NCBI GenBank assembly: GCA_012513605.1
Contig: JAAZBV010000128.1
Coordinates: forward strand, 605-64,604
Direction of reading: 5' to 3'
From: Desulfatiglans sp.
Lineage (GTDB): Bacteria; Desulfobacterota; DSM-4660; Desulfatiglandales; HGW-15
Length of the DNA: 64,000 nucleotides
Part shown: positions 8,011 to 32,420 of the stretch, one piece after another
How positions within the stretch are numbered: position 1 is the stretch's first letter
How the letters are laid out: every line of letters begins with the position of its first letter
Translations under genes and position numbers: made by a program
Notes under the pieces: model-generated
Database searches by the model: none
What the model was told of the DNA's origin: nothing
What the model saw: the letters and a program-made list of their open reading frames with translations, nothing else

Positions 8011-8106
8011 ACAAATATTCTCCTTCTTAATTTTTAACGATACCAAATAGTAGCAGGGAAAATATAATATAGTTGCCCGAAATTATTGTAATCTGCTATC
8101 TTTCAC

Positions 8107-11989: not shown

Positions 11990-12976
11990 CTATGTTTTAA
12001 CCCTTGATCCTGTTTTTATCTTCCCTAATGAAAGATATCGCTGCAGCAGGATAAAGATACACAAAAGGATGCCGATAAAGACCTTTGTCCACCAGGTGCT
12101 CAGGTTCCCCTGAAACGTGATGATGGTCTGGATCAGCCCCAGGATCATGACACCGATAACTGTTCCCTCCATAAAGCCCACACCGCCTGTTAAAAGGGTT
12201 CCCCCGATAACAACAGCGGTAATTACATCCAGTTCAAGTCCTGTGCCGGCAAGCGGGTATCCAGCAAGGGTATAGAGGGAATAGACCAGCCCCCCTGCTG
12301 CACAGATGGTGCTGTTGAGGGTGTATATGAGGATTTTGCTCCTTCCAACCGGAAGACCCATTAGGATGGCAGATTTTTCATTATCGCCTATGGCATAAAT
12401 ATTTCTGCCGAAACGTGTATAATGCAGGATATATGCGCCAAGCATAGCCATTACAATAAAGGTAACCGCATAGGCAGGTAGCCTGATTCCATTACCCAGT
12501 GGAATAGAAGCCTTTGAGATAGTGAGAAAAAGTTCATTGCGGATGGGCACAGAGTCAAGGCTTATCACGAAGGATAGCCCCCTGGCCAGAAACATCCCGA
12601 CAAGGGTTACAAGAAAAGGGGGCATTTCAAGAAAGTGTATCATGCTTCCCATAGTAAAGCCCAGCACTGCGCCGCAGAGGAGGCAGATGAAGATAACCAT
12701 AAATGGCGATATGCTGGTGCGTGATAGCAGGTTTGCACATAAAACCCCGGTAAATGCGACAAGAGAACCAACAGAGAGATCAATCCCTCCTGAGATGATG
12801 ACAAAGGTCATGCCAATGGCGATGATGCCGACAAAGGCGTTATCTATAAAGAGGTTAATAAAAACACGGAGAGAAAAAAAGCCTTTATAGGCAAATGTAC
12901 CTGAGAGATAGATCAGGATGAATACCAGAAAGGTTGAAAGGATTGGTATATTTTTCTGGCTTAATCGAAATCTCAT
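11990..12976 (-). CDS. yjfF: Sugar ABC transporter permease, YjfF-like (furanose importer)
   Basis: 328 aa. Strong resemblance, recalled from E. coli YjfF, e.g. GIIAIGMTFVIISGGIDLSVGS and LSTWWTKVFIGILLCIFILLQR. 4-nt overlap with the upstream permease gene. Confidence 0.8.
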   Translation of the reverse strand: MRFRLSQKNIPILSTFLVFILIYLSGTFAYKGFFSLRVFINLFIDNAFVGIIAIGMTFVIISGGIDLSVGSLVAFTGVLCANLLSRTSISPFMVIFICLLCGAVLGFTMGSMIHFLEMPPFLVTLVGMFLARGLSFVISLDSVPIRNELFLTISKASIPLGNGIRLPAYAVTFIVMAMLGAYILHYTRFGRNIYAIGDNEKSAILMGLPVGRSKILIYTLNSTICAAGGLVYSLYTLAGYPLAGTGLELDVITAVVIGGTLLTGGVGFMEGTVIGVMILGLIQTIITFQGNLSTWWTKVFIGILLCIFILLQRYLSLGKIKTGSRVKT

Positions 12977-14031
12977 GATGGCCTGTCTCCTGAATGTAAA
13001 ATAAGCGAGAGCTGATCCCGCAGTTTTTTAGACTGGATCAGCGCCACCATGATGATTATTACTGCCTTGAATACCAGCACGACCTGGGGCGGGACACCGC
13101 GCGTAATGATGGTTGTTGTAAGGGACTGGATAATAAGTGCCCCGATGATAGCGCCAGCCATTGAAAAACGTCCTCCGTTTATGGTCCCCCCGATAATAAC
13201 AGCGGCGATTGCATCCAGTTCCATAAATATTCCTGCATTGTTGGCATCTGCTGCCTTTATATCCGCAGTAATGATCAGACCTGCAAGGCCAGCGCAGAAC
13301 CCTGAAAAACCATAGGTTAAGGTTGTTATCATCCTTACCGGTATCCCCATGTAACGGCTTGCAAGGGGATTTGCGCCTGATGCCTCAATGAAAAGCCCGA
13401 GTGTTGTTTTTCTGGTAATGGCCCAGGTGAGAATAAAGAGGAGAATCACCATGATAACAGGGAAGGGCAGCCCCAGGAAGAAACCGCTTCCTATGAACTG
13501 GAAGGGTGCATGCTCAAATACAATGATCTGCCCGTGTGTGATTAACTGTGCAATCCCCCTGCCCACTGTCATGAGTATAAGTGTGGCGATAATAGGCTGG
13601 ACACCTATGTAAGCCACAAGAAAGCCGTTCCATAACCCCAGAATGATTGATAGCACAAGAGGCACAAGAAGCACTATGATCAAAGAGGTCTGGTCACCAT
13701 ATTCCAGGATGCCTTTAACATAATCAGGCCTGATAAGCTGCGCTGCTAAAGCCCCTGAGATGGCAATGATTGCGCCCACTGACAGATCAACGCCCCCGGT
13801 TGCGTAAACCAGGGTCATACCGATTGTGATAAGTATAACCGGCGCACCCCTGTTGAATATATCTATCAATGAGCCGAACAGGTGACCGTTCTTTATCTCA
13901 ATGTGGAAAAATCCATCTGTGAAAATCAGATTGAATAAAAGTATGGCTATAAAGGCGAGCAGGGGATAGATGATGCTCAGGTCTGAAGAGCCAGGGTTCA
14001 AAAGAGATCTCTTTTTCTTAACAATGTTCAT
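12973..14031 (-). CDS. ytfT: Sugar ABC transporter permease, YtfT-like
   Basis: 352-aa polytopic protein of the CUT2 permease family (TIGMTLVYATGGVDLSVGA). Overlaps both neighbouring genes by 4 nt. Confidence 0.8.
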   Translation of the reverse strand: MNIVKKKRSLLNPGSSDLSIIYPLLAFIAILLFNLIFTDGFFHIEIKNGHLFGSLIDIFNRGAPVILITIGMTLVYATGGVDLSVGAIIAISGALAAQLIRPDYVKGILEYGDQTSLIIVLLVPLVLSIILGLWNGFLVAYIGVQPIIATLILMTVGRGIAQLITHGQIIVFEHAPFQFIGSGFFLGLPFPVIMVILLFILTWAITRKTTLGLFIEASGANPLASRYMGIPVRMITTLTYGFSGFCAGLAGLIITADIKAADANNAGIFMELDAIAAVIIGGTINGGRFSMAGAIIGALIIQSLTTTIITRGVPPQVVLVFKAVIIIMVALIQSKKLRDQLSLILHSGDRPS

Positions 14032-15560
14032 AATCTCTCTCCAGTGCCTTCCTGAGCAAGTGTTGTCATGATTGTCTCTTCAGATATATTTTCGCCCGAA
14101 ATCTCCCCTACCTTTTTTCTGTCCTTCAGTATTGCGACACGGCTGCATGTGTGAACGATCTCTTCCAGCTCAGAGGAGATAAAGAGGATGCTGCGGCCTT
14201 CCTCCCTTAACCTGAATATCAGTTTCTCTATCTCTGCCTTGGCGCCCACATCAATACCCCGTGTGGGTTCGTCCAGTATCAGGAGGCGCGGATTCATGGC
14301 CATCCAGCGGGCAAGGATAACCTTCTGCTGGTTTCCACCGCTCAAGGTTCCGGCCTTCTGCTCTCTGCCTGATACCTTTATCTTTAACAACTCTATATAT
14401 TGGTCTGTTATTCTATCCTGTTCCTTCCTTGATATGCTCCTCAAGAAACCTCTGCGGGACTGTAGCGGTAGAACGATATTTTCTCTTACTGTAAGATCCG
14501 GGATAATGCCTTCGGTTTTCCTGTCTTCAGGGCAGAAGGCTATTGAATGAGAGATAGCATGCCTGGGAGAGTGAATGGCAACAGGTTCATTGTCTATTTC
14601 CATTGTTCCGCCTGTGGGCCTGTTAATGCCGAAAAGGAGTTTTGCCACCTCTGTACGCCCTGAGCCAAGCAGCCCGGCCAGGCCAACCACCTCACCTTCG
14701 CATATCCCAAGATCAAACGGAAACAGGACACCCTTTTCTTCTACATTATTGAGGGTCATGAAGGGTTCTTTTTGTGAAGGTGTCTCTTCAGCTCTTTTAC
14801 CTGATGATACCATCTCCTGTTCCAGCTCCTTACCCAGCATCTTTGATATCAACTGAAAACGCGGAAGCTCTGCTGTTTTGTATTCACCGATAAACTGCCC
14901 GTTTCTTAAGACCGTGATTCGGTCTGATGTCTCATATACCTGGTCAAGAAAGTGTGTAATAAAGATGATGCCCATTCCTTCATCCTTAAGCCTCTTCATT
15001 GTCTTGAAGAGGTTTTTGCATTCCGCCATGTCAAGGCTGGAGGTTGGTTCATCCAGGATCAGGATATTTGCCCTGATATCAATGGCCCTTGCTATGGCCA
15101 CCATCTGCTGGATAGCTGTGGAGAAAGAGGAGAGGGGGAGGGTTACATCGATTTCAAGATCGAGTTTGGCAAGGGCATTTTTGGCATTCATGTTAATGGC
15201 CTTCCAGTCAATCCTGATGCCTTTCATGGGCTGGCGGCCTATAAATATATTTTCCGCTACAGAAAGATTGGGGAGCAGATTTATCTCCTGGTATACGGTG
15301 CTGATTCCCTTACTGGCCGCATCCATGGGGGATGAGGCATCGAACTCTTTGCCTTCAAATTTAATGGAACCGCTGCCTTTTTTATGGACTCCTGTAAGCA
15401 CCTTAATCAGGGTGGATTTACCAGCGCCATTTTCACCCATGAGCGCATGGATCTCCCCGCGCCTCAGGGTGAAATCCACAGCGTCAAGGGCCTTAACACC
15501 GGGGAAGCTCCTGGTCAGGCCTCTTATTTCAAGCAAAACATTGCCAATATCTGGCATCAA
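14028..15560 (-). CDS. ytfR: Sugar ABC transporter ATP-binding protein with duplicated ATPase domains, YtfR-like
   Basis: 510 aa. Walker A GENGAGKST. Signature LSGGNQQKV. Two nucleotide-binding domains, typical of CUT2 systems. Confidence 0.85.
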   Translation of the reverse strand: MMPDIGNVLLEIRGLTRSFPGVKALDAVDFTLRRGEIHALMGENGAGKSTLIKVLTGVHKKGSGSIKFEGKEFDASSPMDAASKGISTVYQEINLLPNLSVAENIFIGRQPMKGIRIDWKAINMNAKNALAKLDLEIDVTLPLSSFSTAIQQMVAIARAIDIRANILILDEPTSSLDMAECKNLFKTMKRLKDEGMGIIFITHFLDQVYETSDRITVLRNGQFIGEYKTAELPRFQLISKMLGKELEQEMVSSGKRAEETPSQKEPFMTLNNVEEKGVLFPFDLGICEGEVVGLAGLLGSGRTEVAKLLFGINRPTGGTMEIDNEPVAIHSPRHAISHSIAFCPEDRKTEGIIPDLTVRENIVLPLQSRRGFLRSISRKEQDRITDQYIELLKIKVSGREQKAGTLSGGNQQKVILARWMAMNPRLLILDEPTRGIDVGAKAEIEKLIFRLREEGRSILFISSELEEIVHTCSRVAILKDRKKVGEISGENISEETIMTTLAQEGTGERL

Positions 15561-15585
15561 TATCTCATCTCCTTGTTAAACAACA

Positions 15586-15711
15586 GGGCAGACGCAGGGG
15601 TCCGCCCCTACGTTATTTTTACCTGGCCCCCTATCCTGTCAGGTGCAGCTTCAGAAAAGGCCGAAATTTTATAAGTTCTGGCTGACATCTGAACGCTGAT
15701 TGCTGAAAGCT
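15586..15711. repeat. Intergenic repeats: CCCCTAC-type hairpin plus a GGCTGACATCTGA-CGCTGA-TGCTGAAAGCT unit
   Basis: gggcagacgcaggggtccgcccctacg (15586-15612). ggctgacatctgaacgctgattgctgaaagct (15680-15711) recurs almost identically at 20825-20856. Confidence 0.6.
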
Positions 15712-15717
15712 GCCTTT

Positions 15718-16677
15718 TTAATACTTCCTGCTCCCTATTGCCTCAGCGGCAGTCTCCTGCGGAAACACCCCCTCTTCTGTTACAATCTTTTTAGGTACAG
15801 ATTCACCCTTTGCCAGCGCCTCCACTGCATCAAAGAGCTGCGGCCCAAGGAGCGGGCTGCACTCAATAGTGCAGTTCAGCTTTCCCTCTATCATTGCCTC
15901 AAATGCGCCTCTTACAGCATCAATGGAGACAATGATAATATCTTTGCCAGGCGCCAGTCCATATGCCTCTATCGCCTGTATGGCGCCTATGGCCATGTCA
16001 TCATTATGTGAAAAGAGGACATTTATGTTTTTACCTTCAGTCTTAAGAAATGCCTCCATTATCTCCTTACCGCCTGACCGGGTGAAATTCCCGCTCTGGC
16101 TTTTAATGACCTCCATTCCCGGATGATCTTTTATAACCTCCTCAAAACCCTTCTTTCTGTCAATAGCAGGGGCAGAACCCACAGTACCCTGAAGTTCCAC
16201 TATTTTCACATTCGTGTAGCCATTTTCAACGAGCCAGCGTGCGGCCCTGCGGCCCTCCTCAACAAAGTCTGAGCCCATGAATGTCACCCATAAAGAGTCA
16301 TCCTGCACATCCACCCCGCGGTCAATCAGGATAACAGGTATACCCGCATCCTTGGCTTCCCTCAGAACCGCCTCAAATCCGGTTTCAACAACAGGAGAAA
16401 ATGCGATAACATCCACGCCCTGGGCAATGAAGTTCCTGATAGCCTTGATCTGGTTCTCCTGCTTCTGCTGGGCATCTGAGAAGATCAGCTTTATGTTGGC
16501 CCTTTTTGCCGCCTCGCTCCGGATGGATTCGGTATTGGCGACCCTCCATGCACTTTCAGCCCCTATCTGTGAGAAGCCCACAGTAATGGTGCCGTCATCT
16601 TTGGCTGTCTGTGAACAGCCTGAGATGAATAACAGAGCTGCACAAATTATAGCAGCGATCTTGATTTGCTTTTTCAT
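15718..16677 (-). CDS. ytfQ: Periplasmic sugar-binding lipoprotein, YtfQ-like (galacto-/arabinofuranose-binding type)
   Basis: 319 aa. Lipobox FISGC. Periplasmic-binding-protein type I fold motifs. First gene of the YtfQRT-YjfF-type set. Confidence 0.8.
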   Translation of the reverse strand: MKKQIKIAAIICAALLFISGCSQTAKDDGTITVGFSQIGAESAWRVANTESIRSEAAKRANIKLIFSDAQQKQENQIKAIRNFIAQGVDVIAFSPVVETGFEAVLREAKDAGIPVILIDRGVDVQDDSLWVTFMGSDFVEEGRRAARWLVENGYTNVKIVELQGTVGSAPAIDRKKGFEEVIKDHPGMEVIKSQSGNFTRSGGKEIMEAFLKTEGKNINVLFSHNDDMAIGAIQAIEAYGLAPGKDIIIVSIDAVRGAFEAMIEGKLNCTIECSPLLGPQLFDAVEALAKGESVPKKIVTEEGVFPQETAAEAIGSRKY

Positions 16678-16699
16678 ATTATGATACCTCCAAAAAAAA

Positions 16700-17917
16700 T
16701 TAGATTGTTCCTGTTTGTTTCCATACCCTTATGGCCTTGATATCTCCTGTCGGGCAATATGCCTCACAGGCCCCGCAGCCATTGCATTTTATTGGATTAA
16801 CAGCGGGATATGATTCATAAGCCTCTTCATCCCACGTGATTTTTATCGCCTCAAAGGGGCAGGCGCGTATGCAGGTATTGCAGTCGCTGATGCCCCAGAG
16901 GCAGAGGGACATGTCCACCCTTGCAATCCCGATTACATACCTGTTCTTCTGCTCCAGATTAAGGTGCTGTAAAGACCCGCTGGGGCATGCCTTTGTACAT
17001 GCATTGCAATTTTCATTGCAATATTCTTTGTTAAACCGGATTACCGGTGTGAAAAACCCCAGAACACCTGAGCCTCCAGTATCAGGATGTATGATCCTGG
17101 AGGGACAGGCACGGACGCAGTTGCCGCATCTTAAACAAAGGGCTGTGAATTCAGCCTCCTTAATTGCGCCCGGCGGACGCAGCAGGGAATTCATGGATTC
17201 TGCATGTCCCGCTTTTTTTGCCAGGAGGCCTAATCCCAATCCTGCTGCAATTGCGATAAATACCCTGCGCGTGGATGGAAGCAGCTCTTTATATCCATTT
17301 ATTACCTGTGGCTCTTTTACCGGCCTTTTTATAAATCTCCTGCAAAAAGAGGCTGCATCATCAAGAATATCCTGTGTTGCGCCTAAAGGGCATATGCGGG
17401 CACACCATAGATTACCCGAAGTCAGTGAAAGCAACAGTAAGATTACCATGCCTGAAATAGAAATAATAACAGCGGATAAAGCTGATGCCTTATAGACAGA
17501 AAATGCACTGTTTAATAATGCGAGCGGGTCCATCCACAAAAAAAGAGGGTATCCGACTATTGCGCCTGCAATGGTTAAAAGCACGATGTATCTGCCTATC
17601 GGGGGAGAGCCTTTCCACCAGGGTTTAACAATGGGCCTGATCCTTGAGACATTATCAAGTAACAGGCCGACAGGGCATACATAGCGGCAGAAAAACCTTT
17701 TTCGGAACAGGGCAATAAAAGAAAAAAGGAGGCCCAGAATTGATCCAAGCCATAATGCCCCTCCTGCCAGTATTGTACATATTGTTACAAAGGGGCTTGC
17801 CTGGACTAATATCCTTGAGCTGTGAACCCAGAATGGGAATGGCAATAACAGCAGTATTGTTATCACAAAACATCCCAGCCTTACATAAAGGCGCATATTT
17901 TGCCTTTCTCCAGTCAT
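16700..17917 (-). CDS. Membrane-bound polyferredoxin of the NapH/MauN/NosR type
   Basis: TM segments with two CX3CP motifs (FFCRYVCPVG, LWCARICPLG), followed by four CxxCxxCxxxCP-type clusters. The start may instead be ATG 17896 (MRLYVRLG), which has the better RBS. Confidence 0.8.
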   Translation of the reverse strand: MTGERQNMRLYVRLGCFVITILLLLPFPFWVHSSRILVQASPFVTICTILAGGALWLGSILGLLFSFIALFRKRFFCRYVCPVGLLLDNVSRIRPIVKPWWKGSPPIGRYIVLLTIAGAIVGYPLFLWMDPLALLNSAFSVYKASALSAVIISISGMVILLLLSLTSGNLWCARICPLGATQDILDDAASFCRRFIKRPVKEPQVINGYKELLPSTRRVFIAIAAGLGLGLLAKKAGHAESMNSLLRPPGAIKEAEFTALCLRCGNCVRACPSRIIHPDTGGSGVLGFFTPVIRFNKEYCNENCNACTKACPSGSLQHLNLEQKNRYVIGIARVDMSLCLWGISDCNTCIRACPFEAIKITWDEEAYESYPAVNPIKCNGCGACEAYCPTGDIKAIRVWKQTGTI

Positions 17918-17941
17918 TTATTAAAAACCTCCATTACCATA

Positions 17942-19195
17942 TTAACCTGCAATTCTAAGATAGATATAGTAAGCGGATATCAGGATCTGTATTATAATGG
18001 CTGCACCGCTCCACAACCTCATTACAGAACCTGGCTGATCAGAAGCAGGAACCTCTCCCCTGAACATGCTTCTGTGATTAAGCCATGCTATAAAAGGCCC
18101 CACAAGAAAGGCAATTACTGATGTCATGTCAATAAATGCTTCAAAGCTTTTCATCAGTGTGGCTATAACTGCCAGACTTACAATAACCAGGAACACCATC
18201 ACCCAGTCATAGAAACGCCTGCCCATAAATTTATTGCCTGACCCTGGCAGCATCTCAATAGCAAGCGCCTCTATCACACGGGGATATCCGTCCATCACCG
18301 TGATAAGGGTTGAAAACATGACAGTAATGGCTGCTATACCTATCGGGTAATAGGCCCAGTTCCCCACAAGTTCGGTAAAAAGCCTGATAACCTGATTGGC
18401 AAAACCAATGGAATTCTTTTCCGGGGTTATGCCGTTGCAATACATCACAACCATGCCCAGCAGAACAAAGCATACGGCCAGTAAAAAGGTAGTGATAAAA
18501 CCGATATTAAAATCCAGCTTTGCCTCAGAAACAGTAACCTCACGTCCAAAGTCCCTTGCCTTTGCGCGGGCCCATAAAGACTGAAGCACAGATGCATCCA
18601 TGGGGGTGGGCATATAACCTGCCATTGCAACCACATAGAGCATGGTGGCCCCGTCAAAGCTGACGCACCCAAGTGACATACCATGAAATCTCAGCTTGAA
18701 CAGGGCGCTTATTGTGGTTATTATGATCAGCAGTGTGAATACTGAAACTATCCCTTTAGTCAGCCTCTCCAGTATATGGTAACGCCCTGTTATCAGGATC
18801 ACGGCGCAAATTATAAGGAGGAGGCCGTTGTCAACCAGCATCCCGAATGACACCCCGAGCACAGCATTGATAAGCGCAGTGGTAACAAGCGTTATTGCCG
18901 CTGTAATAAATACCATGCTCAATAACTGGGAAAGCCCGAAAAGCCAGAGGGTCCACCTGCCAAAGCTGATATAGCTGTCCACAAGTGAACGGCCCGTTGC
19001 GGCAGCAAACTCGCTGCCGAAACGAATACCGGGATACTTGACCAGACAGAAAAAGAGGATAAAAGGGATCATTGCCAGACCATACACTGCACCTGAGCGT
19101 GTGGAGTAGACCAGGTGTGATACACCCACTGCTGCGGCAGTGTACAAAATACCCGGGCCAAGTATGGCCCATAGATTGTTGCCGGACTTTCTCAT
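17942..19195 (-). CDS. Nramp-related membrane transporter lacking the canonical metal-binding motifs
   Basis: 417-aa polytopic protein. The N-terminus LGPGILYTAAAVGVSHLV aligns with Nramp TM1, but DPGN is replaced, and the TM6 region reads GYMPTPMD rather than MPHN. Confidence 0.65.
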   Translation of the reverse strand: MRKSGNNLWAILGPGILYTAAAVGVSHLVYSTRSGAVYGLAMIPFILFFCLVKYPGIRFGSEFAAATGRSLVDSYISFGRWTLWLFGLSQLLSMVFITAAITLVTTALINAVLGVSFGMLVDNGLLLIICAVILITGRYHILERLTKGIVSVFTLLIIITTISALFKLRFHGMSLGCVSFDGATMLYVVAMAGYMPTPMDASVLQSLWARAKARDFGREVTVSEAKLDFNIGFITTFLLAVCFVLLGMVVMYCNGITPEKNSIGFANQVIRLFTELVGNWAYYPIGIAAITVMFSTLITVMDGYPRVIEALAIEMLPGSGNKFMGRRFYDWVMVFLVIVSLAVIATLMKSFEAFIDMTSVIAFLVGPFIAWLNHRSMFRGEVPASDQPGSVMRLWSGAAIIIQILISAYYIYLRIAG

Positions 19196-19211
19196 TCCAT
19201 ATTCCTCATGC

Positions 19212-20702
19212 CTATCCAGGAAGGATTACGCCCCTCTTTTTAAGGGTTGCCTGCAATGCCTTTATATCAATCTTTCTTAAGTCTGTATTGCCCGCTATTG
19301 CCTGTGCCGCTGCTACCCCTGCTGCCTCGCCAAGGGCAATACAATGGGGTATAAGGTTAAAATATTCATTTACAATCATCTCAGATGCAAATGCCCTGCA
19401 TGCAACCAGCATATTGTCCACCTTTGCCGGTATCATGCAGCGGTAGGGCATGTATGTTACCGGGTATTTTATAGAATCCTTGCCGCGATCCACATCAGGG
19501 AATACTGCAACAGTATCTGTGAAGGGGGTCTCTGTATTCATGTCCTTTTCACTCACTACATAATCTCCTGTAACGCGTCTTGCGCCGCGGGTGCCGAGCT
19601 GGGGGTTTGAGAGCACAATGAAGCTCTTCTCAAAACCGGGGATATGCTTCTTGAAATAATCGTGAGTTATCAGCATATCCTTACGGCCTTTAAACTCAAC
19701 ACGGGTAAGCTCATCCACATCCACCTGGCTTGTGTTTGCATAGCGCGGGAAACACCATACAACATGCTCCTGGTTTTTCAGGTTGCTTGTGAGGAATCCC
19801 CCGTGCCCTCCAGCCTTTCTGACCTCGCGCATGTGATCTGTCAACTCTTTAGTGTGTGACGCTTTGTAATCGTCATATTTTTTAAGGTCAACATTATCTA
19901 TCCAGTATGAAAATGAGAGGTTGGCAATCCTCATTGTGCGTTCTATATCCATCTTGAAATCGGCCCCTGCATATGGCAGAAGGTCACCATCGCCTGTGGC
20001 GTCTATTACAACCTTTGCAAGCACTGCCTGTCTTCCTGACTTGCTCTCAAAGATGACACCCCTGGCCCTGTTGCCCTCCATTATGGGCTCTGTTCCCCAT
20101 GCATGGAGGTATGTCTTTACCCCTGCCTCTTCAACCATATCCTGTAAAATGCATTTTGATATCTCGGCATCAATATGAGCCGAGTATATTACCCTCTGCT
20201 CACGTATATTAAAAAAGGAGCGGTTCTGGTAATATGCCACAAGCTTTTTATCATCCGAACCCCAGTGCTCTTTTTTCGGGTAATCAGCCGCCTCCCTGCG
20301 GTCGAGCCGGTCTATCCACTCCTGGGTAATGCCTGCTATCTGCTGTTTACCGCTGAAGTCGCTCAGGTTGGGGATAATGGTAACAAGACCACCTGTGCCC
20401 ATACCGCCAAGGTGCTCGTATCTTTCTATAAGGACAGTATCTGCGCCGCTCCTGGCCGCTGCTACGGCCGCGCCTATACCACCGGGGCCTCCGCCTACAA
20501 CCACAACATCGGCTGTTCGGCATACCTTTGTCTCACGGGCTGCCTCCTTGATTGTCTTTCCTGTAATCGCGGCCTGCTGGGCTGAACTGACTGATACAGG
20601 AAGCAGCATGCCTCCTGCCCCGGCAGCAATGGCTGCGCCTGTAATAGTAGTATTTTTGAAAAAATCACGCCGTGTTATGCCCTTTTCTTTTTGCAATTTC
20701 AT
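19212..20702 (-). CDS. Tat-exported FAD-dependent oxidoreductase (FAD_oxidored/PF12831-like), copy 1
   Basis: Start at MKLQKEKGITRRDFFK (GAGGAG RBS). Twin-arginine motif TRRDFFK. Dinucleotide fold VVVVGGGPGGIGAAVAAARSG. Confidence 0.8.
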   Translation of the reverse strand: MKLQKEKGITRRDFFKNTTITGAAIAAGAGGMLLPVSVSSAQQAAITGKTIKEAARETKVCRTADVVVVGGGPGGIGAAVAAARSGADTVLIERYEHLGGMGTGGLVTIIPNLSDFSGKQQIAGITQEWIDRLDRREAADYPKKEHWGSDDKKLVAYYQNRSFFNIREQRVIYSAHIDAEISKCILQDMVEEAGVKTYLHAWGTEPIMEGNRARGVIFESKSGRQAVLAKVVIDATGDGDLLPYAGADFKMDIERTMRIANLSFSYWIDNVDLKKYDDYKASHTKELTDHMREVRKAGGHGGFLTSNLKNQEHVVWCFPRYANTSQVDVDELTRVEFKGRKDMLITHDYFKKHIPGFEKSFIVLSNPQLGTRGARRVTGDYVVSEKDMNTETPFTDTVAVFPDVDRGKDSIKYPVTYMPYRCMIPAKVDNMLVACRAFASEMIVNEYFNLIPHCIALGEAAGVAAAQAIAGNTDLRKIDIKALQATLKKRGVILPG

Positions 20703-20782
20703 GATTAAAACTCCTCTATAAAAAAATAAATATCTTATTTCCATACCTTCATTCAAAACTGTTGTTTTTAGATTCTAGCGGT

Positions 20783-20885
20783 CTGCTATCAGCGTTCAGC
20801 AAAAGGCATTCAAAACAAAGAGTTGGCTGACATCTGATCGCTGACTGCTGAAAGCTCCATCCAGAATTTGTCTTTTTCTGGATGG
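20783..20885. repeat. Intergenic repeat: inverted partial plus full GGCTGACATCTGA...GCTGAAAGCT unit, and an adjacent hairpin
   Basis: ctgctatcagcgttcagc (20783-20800, inverted partial copy). ggctgacatctgatcgctgactgctgaaagct (20825-20856). ccatccaga...tctggatgg hairpin (20857-20885). Confidence 0.55.
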
Positions 20886-20892
20886 ATACCAG

Positions 20893-22368
20893 CTAACCTG
20901 GAAGTACCACCCCCTGTTTCTTTAACGTTGCCTGTAATGCCTTGATATCAACCTTTCTCACATCAATGCCAGAATTAATCGCCTGTGCCGCCGCTGCCCC
21001 TGCAGCCTCTCCAAGGCAGACACAATGGTGAATTAGATTGAATGCATCATTGATAACAGCGTCTGATGAAAAGGCCCTGCATGCAACAAGCATATTATCA
21101 ACATTGCGCGGTATCAGGCAGCGATAGGGCATATACATTAAGGGATTTTTATCATCCAGGTTGGGGAATATGGCAATGGTGTCATTAAATGGGGTTTTTG
21201 CATTCATATCCTCTTTTTTTACAACATAATCTCCAACAACCCGCCTGCCTCCTCTTGTACCGAGCTGCATATTTGTCAGAACTATGAAGCTCTTTTCAAA
21301 ACCTGGAATATGTTTTTTGTAAAAATCATGTGTTATGAGCATCTCTTTACGGCCTAAAAACTCTACCCGTGTAAGCTCCTCTACATCATACTGACATGTA
21401 TTTGCGTAGCGGGGAAAGCACCAGACAACATTCTCCTGGTTTTTCAGGTTGCTTGTAAGAAAACCGGCTTTCCCGCCGAGTTTTTTCAGCTCACCCAGTT
21501 TGGCAGAGAGTTCCTTTGCATTTGATTTTTTATATTCCTCATATTTTTTAAGATCAACATTATCTATCCAGTATGAAAAGGAGAGGTTTGCTATCCTCAT
21601 GGTGCGCTCGATATGGGTTTCAAACTCTGCACCGGCATAAGGCAGTAGGTCACCATCGCCTGTGGAGTCAATGACAACCTTTGCAAGCACCGCCTGCCTG
21701 CCTGACTTGCTCTCAAAGATTACCCCCCTGGCCCTGTTGCCCTCCATTATGGGCTCTGTCCCCCAGGAGTGGAGATAGGTCTTTATTTTAGCCTCTTCCA
21801 TCATGTCCTGAAACAGGCACTTTGATATCTCTGCATCGATGTGTGCGGAATAGCCGACCCTGTTACCTGTCGCATAAAAAAAGGAGCGGTTATTGTAATA
21901 TTCAACAAGCTTTTTATCGGTTGAACCCCAGTGCTCCTTCTTGGGGTAATCTGCCCCATCCCTTTTATCCAGCCTCTCTATCCATTCCTGGGTGATTCCT
22001 GCTATCACCTGTTTACCGGTAATATCGGTCATGGCCGGGATAATGGTAACAAGGCCCCCTGTCCCCATGCCGCCAAGGTGTTCATACCTTTCAATAAGAA
22101 CTGTATCAGCCCCGTTCCTTGCTGCTGACAAGGCCGCACCTATACCGCCTGGTCCTCCGCCAACAACCACAACATCCGCTGTGCGGCAAACCTTTGTCTC
22201 ACGGGCAGCCTCTTTGATCGTCTTACCTGTTATCGAGGCCTGCTGGGCTGAACTGGCTGATACAGGAAGCAGAATGCCTCCTGCCCCGGCAGCAATGGCT
22301 GCTCCTGTGATAGTAGTATTTTTGAAAAAATCACGTCGTGTTAAGCCGATACCTTTTGACGATTTCAT
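20893..22368 (-). CDS. Tat-exported FAD-dependent oxidoreductase, copy 2 (tandem paralog)
   Basis: 491 aa. LTRRDFFKNTTITGAAIAAGAGG Tat signal. GxGxxG motif. Collinear with copy 1 along its whole length. Confidence 0.8.
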   Translation of the reverse strand: MKSSKGIGLTRRDFFKNTTITGAAIAAGAGGILLPVSASSAQQASITGKTIKEAARETKVCRTADVVVVGGGPGGIGAALSAARNGADTVLIERYEHLGGMGTGGLVTIIPAMTDITGKQVIAGITQEWIERLDKRDGADYPKKEHWGSTDKKLVEYYNNRSFFYATGNRVGYSAHIDAEISKCLFQDMMEEAKIKTYLHSWGTEPIMEGNRARGVIFESKSGRQAVLAKVVIDSTGDGDLLPYAGAEFETHIERTMRIANLSFSYWIDNVDLKKYEEYKKSNAKELSAKLGELKKLGGKAGFLTSNLKNQENVVWCFPRYANTCQYDVEELTRVEFLGRKEMLITHDFYKKHIPGFEKSFIVLTNMQLGTRGGRRVVGDYVVKKEDMNAKTPFNDTIAIFPNLDDKNPLMYMPYRCLIPRNVDNMLVACRAFSSDAVINDAFNLIHHCVCLGEAAGAAAAQAINSGIDVRKVDIKALQATLKKQGVVLPG

Positions 22369-22399: not shown

Positions 22400-24025
22400 T
22401 TATTTACTCTTTTCCCTCAACCCTGAAAAATATGTATCAATTACCTTCAATCTCTCCATATTAGGAACATGCCTTGCCCCTGGAGTTGCATCAAATACCA
22501 TTACCTTTTGATCAGTCTCTGTAAAAGCAGGCCATTCAGGCAGACCCTGGCCGTTAGGATTACCGGTTTTTGCAAAGTTAGCCCAGTAGCTGCTTATCAT
22601 GTCAGAGAGTTCCAGATCATCTTCAGGTGTTGTTTCTACTCCACCCAATGTCTGGAATGCATATGGTACGTCGCTTCCATGCCCTGATCCTGTATCAGGT
22701 GGACCGGGGTTGTAGTCAAAATAATACTGGTAGGCACTGTTTTTACCCTTCTGTGTCTGAAGGCGTGACCATGCCCAGGTATTCCATGAGAAGGAGCTGT
22801 CGTTCCTGATATCCCTTGATGCCCTTGTTGCCTCAGCATCTGTTGCGTGGGGGTATGCGCTTAATATCAATTCTGCCTGCGGGCCATACTGCTCCTTGAT
22901 CTGCTTCTCAAAATCTGCCTTGGTTAATTCCTGGTTTCCGCCGAATGAGCCCATTTCATTGGATGTGTGCCCCAGTAATACCGGTGTGTCATTAAAGTTA
23001 CCTGCCATGTACAGTGAGTAAAGGTCATTCGATATGACATAACCGTCTGCCACCGGCCTGAACCTCATACCACCCATCCCGCCTGAAAGTTTATTCTGTA
23101 TATCATCTGCGCTTAATGCACGGGCCGCTTTAATGTCTGCTGCACCCAGCTCCTTTAAAAACTGTTCGCCGTTTGATTCTGCAAGTTTAAGTGCAGGCAG
23201 CCCCAGGCCAATACCTGCCTGATTCTCTGTCATAAGGGGCGTAAATGACCCCCCGCTCATGCAGATGGCCCTGTGAAAAAGTCCCTTTGTAAGGGGGGTG
23301 GCTGCGAGCAGGCTTATGGCTGCGCCTCCGGCAGAATGGCCGAATATGGTTACATTCCCCGGGTCTCCACCGAAATTTGCAATATTATCCTTTACCCATT
23401 TTAATCCTTCAACCATGTCAAGCATCCCATAGCTGCCTGACCCATTACCGCTCTCTATGCTTAATTCGGGGTGTGCAAGAAAACCGAATGGCCCCAGCCT
23501 GTAGGCGACACTCACCATTACAACCCCCTTTCTGGCAAAACCCATTCCATCATACATGGGTGTGCTTGTAGAGCCACCGCTGTAACCGCCGCCATGCACC
23601 CAGTAGATAACCGGCAGTTTTTCATCTGTTTTTTTTGCCGGGGTCCACACGTTAATGTAAAGGCAGTCTTCGCTGACAGGTGAGGTATTACCCATGGCGT
23701 TTGCCGTCTGCATACATGCGTCGCAGAAGACATCGGTTTTTTTTATGCCGCTCCATGGCCGCACAGGTGCAGGGGCCTTCCAGCGCAAATCTCCTATAGG
23801 CGGCGCGGCAAAGGGGATACCTTTATAGGTCAATATCCCATCCTCTTCTATCCCTTCAATTGTTCCACCTGTTACCTCAACCTTTGTTGTTACAGGAGGC
23901 GCCTCCTTTATCTCTGGCGCACTGCTTTTCTTAACCTGATTTTTATCAGGTGTTGAATCGCATGCAAAGGTTATGAAAAACATAAACAGAATGATTGTCA
24001 GCCAGATTGAGTATTTAATTTTCAT
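22400..24025 (-). CDS. Type-B carboxylesterase (secreted, possibly a lipoprotein)
   Basis: 541 aa. EDCLYINVWTP signature and GHSAGG nucleophile elbow. N-terminal hydrophobic signal ending FITFAC. Confidence 0.85.
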   Translation of the reverse strand: MKIKYSIWLTIILFMFFITFACDSTPDKNQVKKSSAPEIKEAPPVTTKVEVTGGTIEGIEEDGILTYKGIPFAAPPIGDLRWKAPAPVRPWSGIKKTDVFCDACMQTANAMGNTSPVSEDCLYINVWTPAKKTDEKLPVIYWVHGGGYSGGSTSTPMYDGMGFARKGVVMVSVAYRLGPFGFLAHPELSIESGNGSGSYGMLDMVEGLKWVKDNIANFGGDPGNVTIFGHSAGGAAISLLAATPLTKGLFHRAICMSGGSFTPLMTENQAGIGLGLPALKLAESNGEQFLKELGAADIKAARALSADDIQNKLSGGMGGMRFRPVADGYVISNDLYSLYMAGNFNDTPVLLGHTSNEMGSFGGNQELTKADFEKQIKEQYGPQAELILSAYPHATDAEATRASRDIRNDSSFSWNTWAWSRLQTQKGKNSAYQYYFDYNPGPPDTGSGHGSDVPYAFQTLGGVETTPEDDLELSDMISSYWANFAKTGNPNGQGLPEWPAFTETDQKVMVFDATPGARHVPNMERLKVIDTYFSGLREKSK

Positions 24026-24052: not shown

Positions 24053-25141
24053 TTAAAAATTAATCAATCCTTTATTAAAGGTGCAATGCAGGTTTCTCTC
24101 CAGCATTGTTGGTATACATTTGTTGCAGGAGGTACATAAAGATCTCTTTGATGAACCTTCTCTGAACTTCTTTACAATATGCTGATCCATAATAAATGGC
24201 CTGCACATTGATATGGCATCCGCTATCCCATCATCTAATACCTTTTCCATATCAGAAAGGTTTCTCATTCCGCCGACCAGTATTAAGGGCTTAGATATGG
24301 CCTCTCTTGCCCCTTTACATTCCTCAGCATAATAGGGGTCCATCCTGTTCGGCCTGATATGGTTAAAGGGGGTCTCTTCGACACCCTCGCTCACCTCTAT
24401 TGCATCCATTCCTGCATCAATGAACATTTTTGCTGAATTTATCCCCTCTTGTGCGCTCTTGCCCTCAGGGTGGTATTCCTTTATCCCAAGCTTTATCAGT
24501 ATTGGAAAATCAGCCCCTGTAGCCTTTCGCAGCCCTTCAGTAATCTTTATTACAAACCTTGCCCTGTTTGAAGGTGACCCGCCCCATTTATCACTCCTCC
24601 TGTTTGTAACAGGAGAGAGAAATGCGCTTACAAGCCAGCCATGAGCAGCATGGATCTGCACACCGTCAAAGCCAGCCTCGGCTGCCCTTGCTCCCGCCTT
24701 TACGAATTCATCCACCTTTTGTTCAACTTCATCGGAGGATAATTCTCTCACCTTGAGATTGTTTGCAGGATTGACTGTCTCTGAGGGGCCAACCGTCTGG
24801 AATCCGCACAGGTCAGGGTTCCCGAACCAGCCTGCATGCATAAGCTGTGCGACTATCTTTCCGCCATTGGCATGGACAGTGTCTGTTATCTTCTTAAGGG
24901 AGGGGATCATTTCATCAGTATGGATCCCCAGTTGACCAGGGGCAGCCCAGCCGTCAAGGCCGGGGAAGAGCCCGCTTGAAACAATGAGCCCGACCTCACC
25001 CCTTGCAAGTTCCCTGTAAAAATTGAGCTGCGCCTCGGTTACAACCTGGTTTTCACCAAGGTTGTCTACTGTTGCTGACCGGACAAAACGATTCTTTATT
25101 ATCATCCTGTTTATCTGTAACGGTTTAAATATCTCTGACAT
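24053..25141 (-). CDS. NADH:flavin oxidoreductase, Old Yellow Enzyme family (TIM barrel only)
   Basis: 362 aa. FKPLQINRMIIKNRFVRSA, QLMHAGW, HAAHGWL motifs. Lacks the long Fe-S/FAD extension of 2-enoate reductases, but its tail contains CTSCNKC...HC. Confidence 0.85.
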   Translation of the reverse strand: MSEIFKPLQINRMIIKNRFVRSATVDNLGENQVVTEAQLNFYRELARGEVGLIVSSGLFPGLDGWAAPGQLGIHTDEMIPSLKKITDTVHANGGKIVAQLMHAGWFGNPDLCGFQTVGPSETVNPANNLKVRELSSDEVEQKVDEFVKAGARAAEAGFDGVQIHAAHGWLVSAFLSPVTNRRSDKWGGSPSNRARFVIKITEGLRKATGADFPILIKLGIKEYHPEGKSAQEGINSAKMFIDAGMDAIEVSEGVEETPFNHIRPNRMDPYYAEECKGAREAISKPLILVGGMRNLSDMEKVLDDGIADAISMCRPFIMDQHIVKKFREGSSKRSLCTSCNKCIPTMLERNLHCTFNKGLINF

Positions 25142-25175: not shown

Positions 25176-26702
25176 CTAACACTGTTTATGTTTTTTTAGA
25201 TATTGCCGCATCAGAAATTTCATCAGCTCATCCGGCCCTCTGTTATCCACACAAACCTCATCATAGAAACAGATCCTGTTTGGATCTTCTTCGGTGAACG
25301 GTTTCCAAAAAGGCATGTCTGATCCGTCCGCATCCTTTCCATTCGGGTCGCCGGTGCGTATAAAGTTCGCCCAGTAATTACACATTTTGCGCGCCAGGTC
25401 ATAATGCATACCCACAAAGGGTCTCCAGCACTTGGCAAGGGTCTCAAAAAAGAACCAGAGATCAACAGAATGAAATGCCCCCGGGTTATCCCAGCCTGGT
25501 ATCCCTGCGTTAAAGACCCAGTAATATATGGGAGTTTTATCACCTGTTCGTTTTTTTGCCTTTCCGATAAGCCTGATGGAATATTCCAGGTGGCTAACAG
25601 TGGCCCTGTAGAGCATCTCGGAGATACTGCCTGTATCGGATTTACAGAGATTAAGGAATTCGTCCGCATCCGATCCATAGGCCTCTCTGGCAAAGGCCAC
25701 AAATTCATCGACAGTTTTGACAAGTGGTCTGTCAGGAAATTCTGTGGCAGTGTGGCCGAACATCATGGGGACAAGCTCGCATCTGTTAGCCATAAAACGC
25801 TCATTTGCATCGCCCACATAAAATTTATCATCGATTACAGGCCCCCAGAAGCTCTTGTATTCCACCATTTTGTCCCTTAAGGATACTGTATCCAGTTTGC
25901 GTGCCTCTTGAAGGGTGGATACGCCTATAAATTTAAAGAATTCAACCCCGGCCTGTTCAGCCTCGATAAGATTTTTTTCCTTATGAAAGAGGTTTCCAGG
26001 GTAGGCTGTCATAGCAAGTCCGCTGTCTACAATGGCCTTCTGGAACAGCCCTTTATTTGTGGGTGAGGTGACCTGTGCCATTACACTGCCGCCTCCTGCT
26101 GATTGCCCCCCTATTGTGATGTTGTCAGGGTCTCCGCCAAAGGCTGCTATATTGCGCTTTACCCAGCGTGTCCCGCACTGCTGATCAAGGAAGCCGAAGT
26201 TGGCAGGGGCATCAGGGTTTTCTGCAGTAATCTCCGGGTGACAGAGAAATCCAAATGCATTCAGCCTGTAATTGATTGTGACTACCACGATCCCGCGCCT
26301 TGCAATGCGCTCGCCGTCAAACTCCATCTCAGCGGTATTACCCTCCTGTAATCCTCCTCCGAAATACCAGACAAATACAGGCAGTTTTTCATCAGCCTTT
26401 TTAGCGGGTGTCCAGACGTTTAGATGGAGTGAGTCTTCATCCATCTCAATGGATGTGTCAACGTTCCACTCCCTTGTATAGATGATCTCAGGGTCTTCAC
26501 CAGGGATATGCTGCATGGAGATAGGCGCAAATTTGTATGCATAGAGAACCCCTTCCCAGTCCTTTGCAGGTTGAGGCGCCCTCCAGCGGTTTGTGCCAAC
26601 GGGCGGCGCAGCAAAGGGGATACCCTTAAAGGATGTGATACGCGGATCAGCCGCAGGCAAACCCTCGACCAGACCATTTTCAACCATGACTCTTCTTAGC
26701 AT
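25176..26702 (-). CDS. Type-B carboxylesterase (cytoplasmic, no signal peptide)
   Basis: 508 aa. EDSLHLNVWTP and GQSAGG motifs. Confidence 0.85.
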   Translation of the reverse strand: MLRRVMVENGLVEGLPAADPRITSFKGIPFAAPPVGTNRWRAPQPAKDWEGVLYAYKFAPISMQHIPGEDPEIIYTREWNVDTSIEMDEDSLHLNVWTPAKKADEKLPVFVWYFGGGLQEGNTAEMEFDGERIARRGIVVVTINYRLNAFGFLCHPEITAENPDAPANFGFLDQQCGTRWVKRNIAAFGGDPDNITIGGQSAGGGSVMAQVTSPTNKGLFQKAIVDSGLAMTAYPGNLFHKEKNLIEAEQAGVEFFKFIGVSTLQEARKLDTVSLRDKMVEYKSFWGPVIDDKFYVGDANERFMANRCELVPMMFGHTATEFPDRPLVKTVDEFVAFAREAYGSDADEFLNLCKSDTGSISEMLYRATVSHLEYSIRLIGKAKKRTGDKTPIYYWVFNAGIPGWDNPGAFHSVDLWFFFETLAKCWRPFVGMHYDLARKMCNYWANFIRTGDPNGKDADGSDMPFWKPFTEEDPNRICFYDEVCVDNRGPDELMKFLMRQYLKKHKQC

Positions 26703-30468: not shown

Positions 30469-30490
30469 GATATCCCTCCTTTGGTTAATT

Positions 30491-31198
30491 CTATTTTTTT
30501 GCCTGACCATAGTATGCATCTTCCCCGTGTTTTCTCTGATAATGTTTATTGATCAGGGTATCCTTCATCCGCCTGATATCAGGATTTATCTGCTCTGTTA
30601 TGCAGGCCATTCTGGCTATCTCTTCGAGTACAACCGCATTGTAGACCGCCTTATCAGGTGTTTCGCCCCAGGTGAATGGCCCATGACATGCGACCAGGAT
30701 CATCTGTACCTCAAGGTGCGAGAGATTATTTTCTTTAATTGCATTTATAATCTGATGGCCGGTCTCTACCTCATACTGCCCCTTTATCATCTCATTACTC
30801 ATCACCTTTGTGACAGGGATGTCGTGGGACATATGGTCAGCGTGTGTTGTCCCGTAAATAGGTATGGGTCGGCATGCCTGCGCCCATGCCACTGCATAGG
30901 CAGAATGCGCGTGTGCGATGCTGTTAATACCCGGTAAAGAGCGGTAAAGCACGGCATGGGTAGGTGTGTCAGAAGATGGGTTCATCTTTCCCTCAACCCT
31001 GTTCCCATCCATATCCACAATAACCATGTCATCGGGTTTCATTTCATCATAGGGGACACCGCTTGGCTTTATAGCAAATATGCCTTTTGATGCATCAAGT
31101 GCGCTTACATTGCCAAAGGTGTAGATCGCCAGTTTATTCTTAGGGATCTCCATATTTGCCCTAAAGCACACCTCTTTCAGATCCTTGTAATTACTCAT
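30491..31198 (-). CDS. araD: L-ribulose-5-phosphate 4-epimerase (class II aldolase fold)
   Basis: 235 aa. N-terminus LKEVCFRANMEIPKNKLAIYTFGNVSALD and metal-binding His residues (HAHSAYA). Sits within an arabinose gene context. Confidence 0.85.
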   Translation of the reverse strand: MSNYKDLKEVCFRANMEIPKNKLAIYTFGNVSALDASKGIFAIKPSGVPYDEMKPDDMVIVDMDGNRVEGKMNPSSDTPTHAVLYRSLPGINSIAHAHSAYAVAWAQACRPIPIYGTTHADHMSHDIPVTKVMSNEMIKGQYEVETGHQIINAIKENNLSHLEVQMILVACHGPFTWGETPDKAVYNAVVLEEIARMACITEQINPDIRRMKDTLINKHYQRKHGEDAYYGQAKK

Positions 31199-31217
31199 TT
31201 TACCTCCTTTGCAATGG

Positions 31218-32285: not shown

Positions 32286-32301
32286 GTGACTCTCTACTTA
32301 A

Positions 32302-32419: not shown

Positions 32420-32420
32420 C

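Follow-up and report, generated by a model that had tools for sequence, protein, structure and literature searches.

What brings two exported flavoproteins, a membrane protein of Nramp-like fold and an iron-sulfur polyferredoxin together in the middle of a sugar-utilisation region, and what might they do there? The question is raised by four genes in a 64,000-nucleotide (nt) stretch of DNA from Desulfatiglans sp. (GenBank assembly GCA_012513605.1, contig JAAZBV010000128.1, positions 605 to 64,604), which was analysed at its full length and is called the window below. The genes are co-oriented on the minus strand and occupy positions 16700-22368; we refer to them as FAD-A and FAD-B (FAD, flavin adenine dinucleotide), the Nramp-like gene and the polyferredoxin gene (Table 1). 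We read the locus as carrying a two-component, heme-free periplasmic redox module whose flavoenzymes would be reductases, with hydroxycinnamates as their most likely substrates here, and we give this reading a probability of roughly 0.5.

The argument begins with the distribution of the polyferredoxin. A word-indexed search gave 1679 matches at E<=1e-10, the best 120 of which are all about 400 amino acids (aa) long, and an exhaustive search of 50%-identity representatives returned 323 clusters at E<=1e-30, mostly aligned end to end. Relatives were located in 426 genomes in a scan of one genome per species, and the best 80 of those loci, all from metagenome-assembled or single-amplified genomes, belong to Desulfatiglandales/Desulfobacterales, Acidobacteriota, Gammaproteobacteria, Pirellulales, Phycisphaerae, Sedimentisphaerales, Verrucomicrobiota and Ca. 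Aegiribacteria. Among the 66 non-redundant loci with at least 1.5 kb of upstream DNA, 65 have a PF12831-type flavoprotein gene as the immediate upstream neighbour of the polyferredoxin gene, in the same orientation; loci of the window's type were counted with the Nramp-like gene intervening, and synteny in the high-GC loci of the PVC group (Planctomycetota/Verrucomicrobiota) was read from stop-to-stop open reading frames (ORFs). At least six phyla are represented among these loci (Thermodesulfobacteriota, Acidobacteriota, Gammaproteobacteria, Planctomycetota, Verrucomicrobiota and Aegiribacteria). A twin-arginine motif is present in most of the paired PF12831 genes; the polyferredoxin homologues all keep their own RR motif, and 76 of 81 keep all six Cx3CP strings. 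Three long contigs with a 65-66% identical polyferredoxin show the order FAD, FAD, 417-aa protein, polyferredoxin, and the full four-gene cassette occurs on at least eight independent Desulfatiglandales/Desulfobacterales-type contigs (L002, L003, L005, L006, L008-L010 and L013). Since the same arrangement recurs in many genomes, it is not due to chance, and the co-occurrence outside this genome on which the original prediction hung is found for the pair as well as for the cassette. That prediction had described a four-gene module; the four genes do recur in one lineage, but the general unit consists of two genes, a flavoprotein followed by a polyferredoxin. One lineage has added a second flavoprotein and the Nramp-like gene, the latter being confined to the Desulfatiglandales-type cassette and missing even from the close relatives L007 and L011.

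The two proteins of the pair also diverge in step. Pairwise distances between flavoproteins and between polyferredoxins correlate with r=0.77 over all loci and 0.86 when only the PVC group is taken (L052-L085), a level reached in none of 2000 permutations, although shared phylogeny contributes to it and no control gene was included; the correlation fits co-inheritance. Copies from Acidobacteriota and Thermodesulfobacteriota are 64-67% identical in the polyferredoxin and 79-84% in the flavoprotein, and these high identities of both proteins suggest that the pair moves between phyla as one unit. The neighbour analysis revealed no other redox partner, such as a cytochrome c or a molybdoenzyme, recurrently adjoining the pair, and no consistent third partner in the distant clades. 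One could suppose that the polyferredoxin is a maturation factor that reductively activates or repairs a flavoenzyme working with some other donor or acceptor, as has been proposed for MauM/MauN and NosR, and MauM/MauN, whose link to enzyme biogenesis is general knowledge, do belong to NCBIfam subfamilies matched here (TIGR00397, TIGR02163). One-to-one adjacency across phyla and the lack of an alternative redox partner are nonetheless better matched by a stoichiometric electron-transfer partner, and we regard a maturation role as improbable.

The anatomy of the polyferredoxin is consistent with such a partnership. It carries two CX3CP motifs (C77-x3-C81-P82 and C172-x3-C176-P177) and four Cys4 motifs (C261/264/267/271, C300/304/307/311, C339/346/349/353 and C378/381/384/388); among 16 aligned homologues there is no variation in the two CX3CP motifs, in R217-R218 or in any of the 16 cluster cysteines. 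Of the NCBIfam models, those for NapH cover residues 39-188 with 53.9 bits (cutoff 213) and 51.4 bits (cutoff 234), and those for NapG/MauM cover residues 213-399 with 92 bits (cutoff 269) and 83.8 bits (cutoff 178.85). As in NapH, four transmembrane helices (TM1-TM4), an inside N-terminus and two CX3CP motifs in K/R-rich loops after TM2 and TM4 are predicted, but the C-terminal cytoplasmic domain with two [4Fe-4S] clusters is missing and the scores fall below the curated cutoffs; the roughly 40 residues between the second CX3CP and R217-R218 hold no cluster motif. As in NapG/MauM, a twin-arginine motif and a hydrophobic stretch precede four [4Fe-4S] motifs, but the domain is fused behind four helices instead of forming a separate soluble chain, and again the scores stay below the cutoffs. 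The protein thus appears, from its motifs, to be a NapH-type four-helix core, an internal twin-arginine anchor and a NapG-type domain with four [4Fe-4S] clusters in one chain. A search of the Protein Data Bank (PDB) with it gave generic ferredoxins only. The original prediction had named a NapH/NosR-type polyferredoxin with two CX3CP and four Fe-S motifs; the motifs and the NapH core hold, and the NosR part does not, since the domain search gave no match to an FMN-binding domain and the chain begins directly with TM1. NosR/NirI identity was rejected on this ground, and also because the ferredoxin domain lies behind a Tat-type helix (Tat, twin-arginine translocation) and not at a cytoplasmic C-terminus.

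On which side of the membrane the clusters lie is decisive for any exchange with exported flavoproteins. By hydropathy and charge, the N-terminus and both CX3CP loops are K/R-rich and assigned to the cytoplasmic side. TM5 (about residues 219-237) follows R217-R218 immediately, has the lowest Kyte-Doolittle hydropathy of the five helices (1.62) and is followed by KK. Tooke et al. (2017, eLife; PMC5449189) described membrane proteins inserted jointly by Sec and Tat, and one of the two examples they tested was a polyferredoxin of the NapH-NapG fusion type, encoded by the delta proteobacterium MLMS-1, whose transmembrane region exported reporters in a Tat-dependent manner. The features of such dual Sec/Tat polyferredoxins (five helices, RR before a weak TM5, positive charges and a four-cluster domain) are all present in the window protein. 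The RR and the weak TM5 after cytoplasmic CX3CP loops lead to a predicted periplasmic location of the four clusters, which would place them together with the Tat-signal flavoproteins. The objection that the Fe-S domains and the flavoproteins might sit in compartments that cannot interact, raised when the module was first proposed, is therefore not borne out by the predicted topology.

The two flavoproteins match PF12831 over its full length (profile positions 1-416 of 416; FAD-A, E=4e-83 and 280.4 bits; FAD-B, E=3e-83 and 280.9 bits; cutoff 27). Both begin with a twin-arginine signal (GLTRRDFFK in FAD-A, GITRRDFFK in FAD-B) followed by a hydrophobic stretch and then ...SAQQ, so that the two Tat-exported FAD oxidoreductases with TRRDFFK signals that had been proposed are recovered, their export being predicted from sequence. 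They are 78-79% identical to each other, and FAD-A orthologues in related cassettes are 80-94% identical. The match to PF00890 (FAD_binding_2) is restricted to the first 36 profile positions, and PDB sequence and profile searches gave nothing beyond FAD-binding-domain matches. By these comparisons, the window flavoproteins are not members of the fumarate/urocanate/cinnamate reductase type (FAD_binding_2), though they may work like them. A separate observation concerns another contig of the same JGI sample, L001, which at 1012-2544 holds a FAD-B copy within a region 99.7% identical over 10.2 kb. Seven substitutions in this copy cluster in about 75 nt and include a stop codon ('FFKIR*ERVIY'), on account of which it was called as two genes; the copy is a pseudogene at strain level or else an artefact of assembly in the duplicated genes.

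In the mechanism that we propose, the polyferredoxin would be a NapGH-type membrane quinol dehydrogenase made as a single chain. Its four helices, which carry the two cytoplasm-facing CX3CP motifs, would be inserted by Sec, and the internal twin-arginine motif together with the weak TM5 would allow Tat to move the pre-folded NapG-like domain with its four [4Fe-4S] clusters to the periplasmic face, where the cluster chain would exchange electrons with the FAD of the Tat-exported PF12831 enzymes. Topology, exclusive pairing and the lack of any other recurrent redox partner make a connection between the quinone pool and FAD the simplest model, and we consider it probable that the polyferredoxin wires the exported enzyme's FAD to the (mena)quinone pool. 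Electrons would pass from menaquinol through the Fe-S chain and FAD to a substrate, and the flavoenzymes would act as periplasmic reductases. It is established that NapGH and NosGH pass electrons from quinol to the periplasm (cited in PMC5449189), and by analogy with them flow in this reductive direction is slightly favoured. With the same wiring, the PF12831 proteins might run the other way, as dehydrogenases that oxidise a phenolic alcohol, a phenolic aldehyde or some other product of the esterases and feed the electrons into the quinone pool; the architecture is symmetric as to direction, periplasmic flavoprotein dehydrogenases that supply respiratory chains are well known, and the original prediction had allowed for oxidation as well as reduction. 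All characterised NapGH/NosGH relatives, however, are quinol dehydrogenases (PMC5449189), the carriers are mostly sediment or digester anaerobes, for which a high-potential quinone sink is limiting, and low-potential [4Fe-4S] chains suit electron delivery, all of which makes reverse flow fairly unlikely.

What the module might reduce is suggested by its neighbours. In the close clade, defined by a polyferredoxin identity of at least 60% with the window's near-identical relatives left out (26 loci, 123 neighbour proteins), these comprise 9 COesterases, 8 PF00756 esterases, 8 BD-FAE, 7 Hydrolase_4, 4 CocE/NonD-type, 4 PETase-like and 3 DAPG/phloretin-hydrolase-type proteins and 2 GDSL lipases, besides further flavoproteins, major facilitator superfamily (MFS) transporters and MtaA/URO-D-like proteins; only 2 of the 123 are GH43. 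The esterase next to FAD-A keeps its position upstream of the cassette in L002, L005, L006 and L008-L011, and homologues of the window's feruloyl-esterase-like protein lie directly downstream of the polyferredoxin gene in L002, L005 and L033. In the close clade, the module looks tied to ester hydrolysis of plant phenolics and not to sugar. A sugar substrate has the window itself in its favour, where the cassette stands between GH51 genes and a YtfQ-like importer inside an araA/araB/araD locus, and the flavoproteins could be imagined to oxidise or reduce arabinofuranose or arabino-oligosaccharides ahead of furanose uptake by the ABC (ATP-binding cassette) importer; PVC homologues, too, sometimes adjoin sulfatases, GH2 or GFO/IDH/MocA genes. 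Yet it is only in L006-L009, the window's nearest relatives, that this importer adjoins the cassette; the 26 remaining loci of the close clade have the neighbours listed above, and we find a sugar substrate quite unlikely. The original prediction had left the choice between a sugar and a phenolic side-chain; the phenolic half fits better, as it is the esterases, and not the furanose importer, that recur.

The substrates would thus be ferulate, p-coumarate or similar plant phenolics that have been released from arabinoxylan within the periplasm, and reduction of the C=C bond of such hydroxycinnamates would serve as an electron sink or as detoxification. Hydroxycinnamates are the most likely candidates because the cassette, with its duplicated flavoenzyme gene, has genes for secreted arabinofuranosidases and for carboxyl and feruloyl esterases around it. 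Reduction of the hydroxycinnamate C=C bond is our best single guess on three grounds: the esterases nearby, habitats that are anaerobic and rich in lignocellulose, and the precedent of secreted cinnamate reductases, in the form of gut anaerobes that respire cinnamates with secreted flavin reductases (bioRxiv 10.1101/2022.12.26.521950); as the specific substrate in this clade, hydroxycinnamates are nevertheless a tentative assignment, itself rather doubtful.

The Nramp-like protein scores below family cutoffs, with 25.5 bits against 29.8 for PF01566 and 39.7 against 50 for NF037982, and HMMER searches of PDB sequences with it gave no match even at E<=10. Its AlphaFold2 model (90-sequence alignment) has a predicted local distance difference test (pLDDT) score of 87.7 and a predicted template modelling score (pTM) of 0.88, and the best Foldseek matches of this model are DraNramp (TM-score 0.76-0.79), EleNRMT (0.74), NRAT and B. 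subtilis YcsG, amino-acid carriers ranking lower. In the register set by the Pfam/NCBIfam match coordinates and a hand alignment to the known MntH motif, the family-invariant TM1 reads A-V-G-V-S-H (G24-V25-S26-H27) where Slc11 proteins have D-P-G-N, and TM6 has an invariant M195-P196 followed by T/S197 in place of the His of M-P-H. The earlier description as an atypical Nramp-like membrane protein is hence justified for the modelled fold and not for the sequence, in which the DPGN/MPH signature is absent. As the Asp and Asn of TM1 are missing, transport of divalent metals is unlikely, and the idea that the protein supplies Fe or Mn for cluster assembly was rejected because the protein lacks the metal-binding residues and most loci lack the gene. 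The same two observations bear on the notion that the genes are merely adjacent, the flavoproteins being stand-alone oxidases and the transporter an ordinary Mn/Fe importer that supplies them with metal: database entries do label relatives of the transporter 'divalent metal cation transporter', but the conserved adjacency in 65 of 66 loci, the correlated divergence of both proteins and the anaerobic habitats also speak against it, and we hold it to be hardly credible.

A role as an accessory carrier of an organic solute seems to us a better description of the Nramp-like protein, with low to moderate confidence. PF01566 includes non-metal 'outgroup' clades (PMC9606685), and use of 5-oxoproline depends on YcsG and PxpT, two proteins of the Nramp family (PMC13274462). 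Of three distant homologues sampled, which share 43-46% identity with the window protein, two are encoded in clusters for the catabolism of aromatic compounds or organic acids, which hints that the whole subfamily may carry organic solutes. Two of these contigs, L086 and L087, can be described further: the copy in an Aliiglaciecola isolate adjoins a Rieske ring-hydroxylating dioxygenase set, and the homologue on the second contig adjoins a sulfatase, cupin/FAA-hydrolase genes and aminotransferases. In our preferred mechanism, the Nramp-fold protein would carry the organic substrate or product across the inner membrane. Taken at its widest, the proposal is that PF12831 proteins and fused polyferredoxins form a new class of heme-free periplasmic respiratory reductase in at least six phyla, carried mostly by uncultured anaerobes, which in Desulfatiglandales and Acidobacteriota would respire hydroxycinnamates and similar plant phenolics released by their own esterases, and use an Nramp-derived carrier for aromatic acids; in this extended form, it is speculative.

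The locus is transcribed. Data sets from bioreactors/anaerobic digesters, biogas, compost and manure, several metatranscriptomes among them, contain sequence nearly identical to it, and RNA contigs of at least 99% identity from four runs cover the whole operon, the 190-nt gap only in part. Such contigs cross the junction between binding-protein and polyferredoxin genes (16576-17674) and the junctions between the polyferredoxin, Nramp-like and FAD-B genes (17584-19400), which is consistent with co-transcription. In three runs, RNA contigs of depth 21-47 join 14963 to 15247 inside the ABC ATPase gene, skipping 283 nt; with only 20 nt on the shorter side and long unrelated loose ends, this probably reflects a related, highly expressed gene of another organism and not a real deletion.

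Several points weigh against a quinol-fed hydroxycinnamate reductase. The direction of flow is drawn from analogy alone, and the polyferredoxin lacks NapH's cytoplasmic clusters, which bears on how it would handle quinol. PF12831 proteins match fumarate/urocanate-type reductases over the FAD-binding domain only (the PDB profile match being flavocytochrome c3), and no biochemical data for any PF12831 member were found in the literature search. The AlphaFold model of FAD-A is poor (pLDDT 58, from a narrow 32-sequence alignment) and gave only generic two-domain FAD folds in Foldseek, with TM-scores of about 0.3; given this pLDDT, we draw nothing about the active site. Several flavoprotein genes of Phycisphaerae and Sedimentisphaerales showed no twin-arginine motif under the pattern used. 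The RNA contigs carry no strand information and may contain DNA. A cytoplasmic ene-reductase of the old yellow enzyme (OYE) type encoded in the same operon could already explain reduction of hydroxycinnamates. Lastly, neighbours are heterogeneous outside the close clade: one acidobacterial clade adjoins carB and hem (housekeeping) genes, and PVC loci are accompanied by scattered sulfatases, GFO/IDH/MocA proteins, SASA carbohydrate esterases and GH2. With neighbours so varied, the substrates must differ between clades, and the module looks like a portable electron-transfer unit in which the specificity of the flavoenzyme varies by clade.

Table 1. Features of the four-gene locus and its surroundings, in window positions.
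Feature	Position	Strand	Description
FAD-A	20893-22368	-	491 aa; Tat-signal PF12831 flavoprotein, putatively periplasmic (signal read from translation)
FAD-B	19212-20702	-	496 aa; Tat-signal PF12831 flavoprotein, paralogue of FAD-A
Nramp-like protein	17942-19195	-	417 aa; Nramp-fold (LeuT/APC) secondary transporter by model
Polyferredoxin	16700-17917	-	405 aa; putative NapH-type core and NapG-type 4x[4Fe-4S] domain
Intercistronic gap FAD-A/FAD-B	20703-20892	-	190 nt; hairpin and imperfect inverted repeat
Carboxylesterase, type-B (COesterase/BD-FAE)	22400-24025	-	lipoprotein signal; PF00135 E=5e-110, BD-FAE E=2e-10
OYE-domain flavoprotein	24053-25141	-	PF00724 E=5e-69
Second COesterase	25176-26702	-	without signal; PF00135 E=1e-88
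GH51-type alpha-L-arabinofuranosidases (two)	26714-28252, 28501-30519	-	signal peptides; PF06964, PF22848
YtfQ-like furanose ABC importer	11990-16677	-	NF041827 YtfQ 380 bits; Pfam
Importer, binding protein	15718-16677	-	
Importer, ATPase	14028-15560	-	
Importer, permeases	12973-14031, 11990-12976	-	
CE1-type feruloyl-esterase-like protein	9614-10960	+	PF00756; NF041944 (feruloyl-esterase domain of xylanase/feruloyl esterase model) 122 bits

The layout is compact. The four genes stand, as had been claimed, between the hydrolase/esterase genes and the furanose importer, and the gap lengths given for them agree with the coordinates: 31 nt between esterase and FAD-A, 190 between FAD-A and FAD-B, 16 between FAD-B and the Nramp-like gene, 24 between this and the polyferredoxin gene, and 22 before the gene of the sugar-binding protein. 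The ORF listing begins FAD-B at TTG 20756 instead of ATG 20702; the latter is its start, being preceded by an AGAGGAG ribosome-binding site and conserved in relatives. The 190-nt gap contains a perfect 11-bp inverted repeat (20856-20866 / 20876-20886, hairpin 20856-20886) and a second, imperfect one of 23 nt, and its RNA folds with -47.9 kcal/mol (z=-2.1). The gap between the FAD genes is much shorter in L006, L008 and L009, where neither its length nor its sequence nor its hairpins are conserved; it is for this reason not part of the module's logic, and we do not treat the hairpins as a regulatory element. A 50-nt piece that includes the perfect hairpin (20834-20884) has unrelated flanks on both sides, and higher depth, in RNA and DNA contigs of several bioreactor runs, which marks it as a small repeated element, present as a single copy within the window. 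No terminator-like site was found in the 190-nt gap, promoter-like sites occurred at chance level (29 found against 30.5 expected), and an Rfam search of 11000-33000 gave no match.

Some neighbouring genes deserve a description of their own. The OYE flavoprotein has 362 aa, consisting of the OYE domain only and a Cys-rich tail (CTSCNKC...C), and its matches, of 167-218 bits and all below cutoff, are to the N-terminal domains of enzymes of the enoate reductase, BaiCD and bilirubin reductase (BilR) types; it is possibly a cytoplasmic ene-reductase for the same phenolic substrates. Between the binding-protein and ATPase genes of the importer lies a strong GC-rich hairpin (15585-15608, minus strand). 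A hairpin after the gene of a sugar-binding protein is the usual arrangement for excess binding-protein transcript. Positions 30491-36299 hold an araD-like class II aldolase (30491-31198, minus), a LacI-type regulator (31218-32285, minus), an FGGY kinase (32455-34056, plus), a HAD phosphatase (34075-34749, plus) and an L-arabinose isomerase, araA (34782-36299, plus), by sequence apparently a complete L-arabinose catabolic set around a divergent regulator; a palindromic operator-like sequence, TGCGTTATCGATAACGCA, lies at 32302-32319, with a near-identical copy at about 32419-32438.

Farther from the locus, 5265-6974 (minus) encodes a predicted UGSC-family selenoprotein of 569 aa with a Sec-type signal peptide, an in-frame TGA at 6570-6572 ('LLVGD-U-GSCTKY') and, immediately behind the UGA, a hairpin; the ORF listing shows the part after the TGA only. 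Homologues lie near the flavoprotein-polyferredoxin pair in L003, L011 (two copies), L016, L028, L029, L032 and L038, and the selenoprotein may be part of the same wider periplasmic redox neighbourhood. A glycyl radical enzyme of the PFL2/glycerol-dehydratase type is encoded at 2843-5308 (minus; TIGR01774, 516 bits against a cutoff of 678). A homologue of 73% identity lies close to the module in L038, and in L003 one of 31% identity comes immediately after the polyferredoxin; no activase was recognised. An EFR1-like flavodoxin-ferredoxin fusion is encoded at 7054-8046 (minus).

If the proposed wiring is true, it gives a first functional handle on PF12831, a large uncharacterised family, at least for the members encoded beside a polyferredoxin, and a physiological partner for polytopic polyferredoxins, so far known only as curiosities of Sec/Tat biogenesis. 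If hydroxycinnamates are reduced, anaerobic lignocellulose degradation in digesters, sediments and soils would have an added electron sink, and 'cinnamate respiration' would extend beyond gut bacteria to environmental Thermodesulfobacteriota and Acidobacteriota through different enzymes. The Nramp-fold protein, if its suggested role is true, would be a further case of a metal-transporter fold serving an organic solute. We found no published description of PF12831 proteins or of their pairing with a polyferredoxin, in a literature coverage that was incomplete, so that this is absence of evidence only.

Each of the window's parts resembles something known (NapH, NapG, the MLMS-1 polyferredoxin, Nramp), and each departs from its family in at least one defining feature. 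NapGH of E. coli and Wolinella succinogenes and NosGH have the same four-helix core with two CX3CP motifs, a Tat-dependent ferredoxin with four [4Fe-4S] clusters and a heme-free delivery from quinone to periplasmic reductase; the window polyferredoxin differs in being a single fused chain, in lacking NapH's cytoplasmic 2x[4Fe-4S], in scoring far below the family cutoffs and in having a PF12831 flavoprotein as partner, where theirs is NapC/NapAB or N2O reductase. Closer in build is the MLMS-1 polyferredoxin Q1NSB0 (PMC5449189), which shows the same NapH-NapG fusion with five helices, RR before a weak TM5 with positive charges, and four periplasmic clusters, but has three cytoplasmic clusters, where the window protein has none, and its TM5 at 338-359, in place of about 219-237; the study of Q1NSB0 dealt with biogenesis only and named no redox partner. 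On the side of the enzyme, Shewanella FccA/UrdA (fed by CymA) and the gut Crd/Cir proteins (bioRxiv 10.1101/2022.12.26.521950) are likewise exported FAD enzymes that are fed from the quinone pool and use organic acids with a C=C bond as acceptors. They belong, however, to FAD_binding_2, often carry FMN-binding or heme domains and are reached by multiheme cytochromes or other routes, whereas the window enzyme is a PF12831 protein with a purely iron-sulfur conduit. For the Nramp-like protein, YcsG/PxpT and the PF01566 'outgroup' (PMC13274462, PMC9606685) offer the same fold, loss of the Slc11 signature and a place in catabolic clusters for organic substrates; in contrast to YcsG, to which HMMER detects no sequence similarity, the window protein has its own invariant 'AVGVSH' motif in TM1. 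MsrPQ (YedYZ), finally, follows the same two-gene plan of a quinol-linked membrane subunit and a Tat-exported reductase, and fused dual Sec/Tat versions of it exist, but it uses heme b and molybdopterin and has a role in protein repair. By analogy with these systems, we infer that the module is a variant of NapGH-type periplasmic electron delivery, which would serve a different enzyme family through an all-iron-sulfur conduit.

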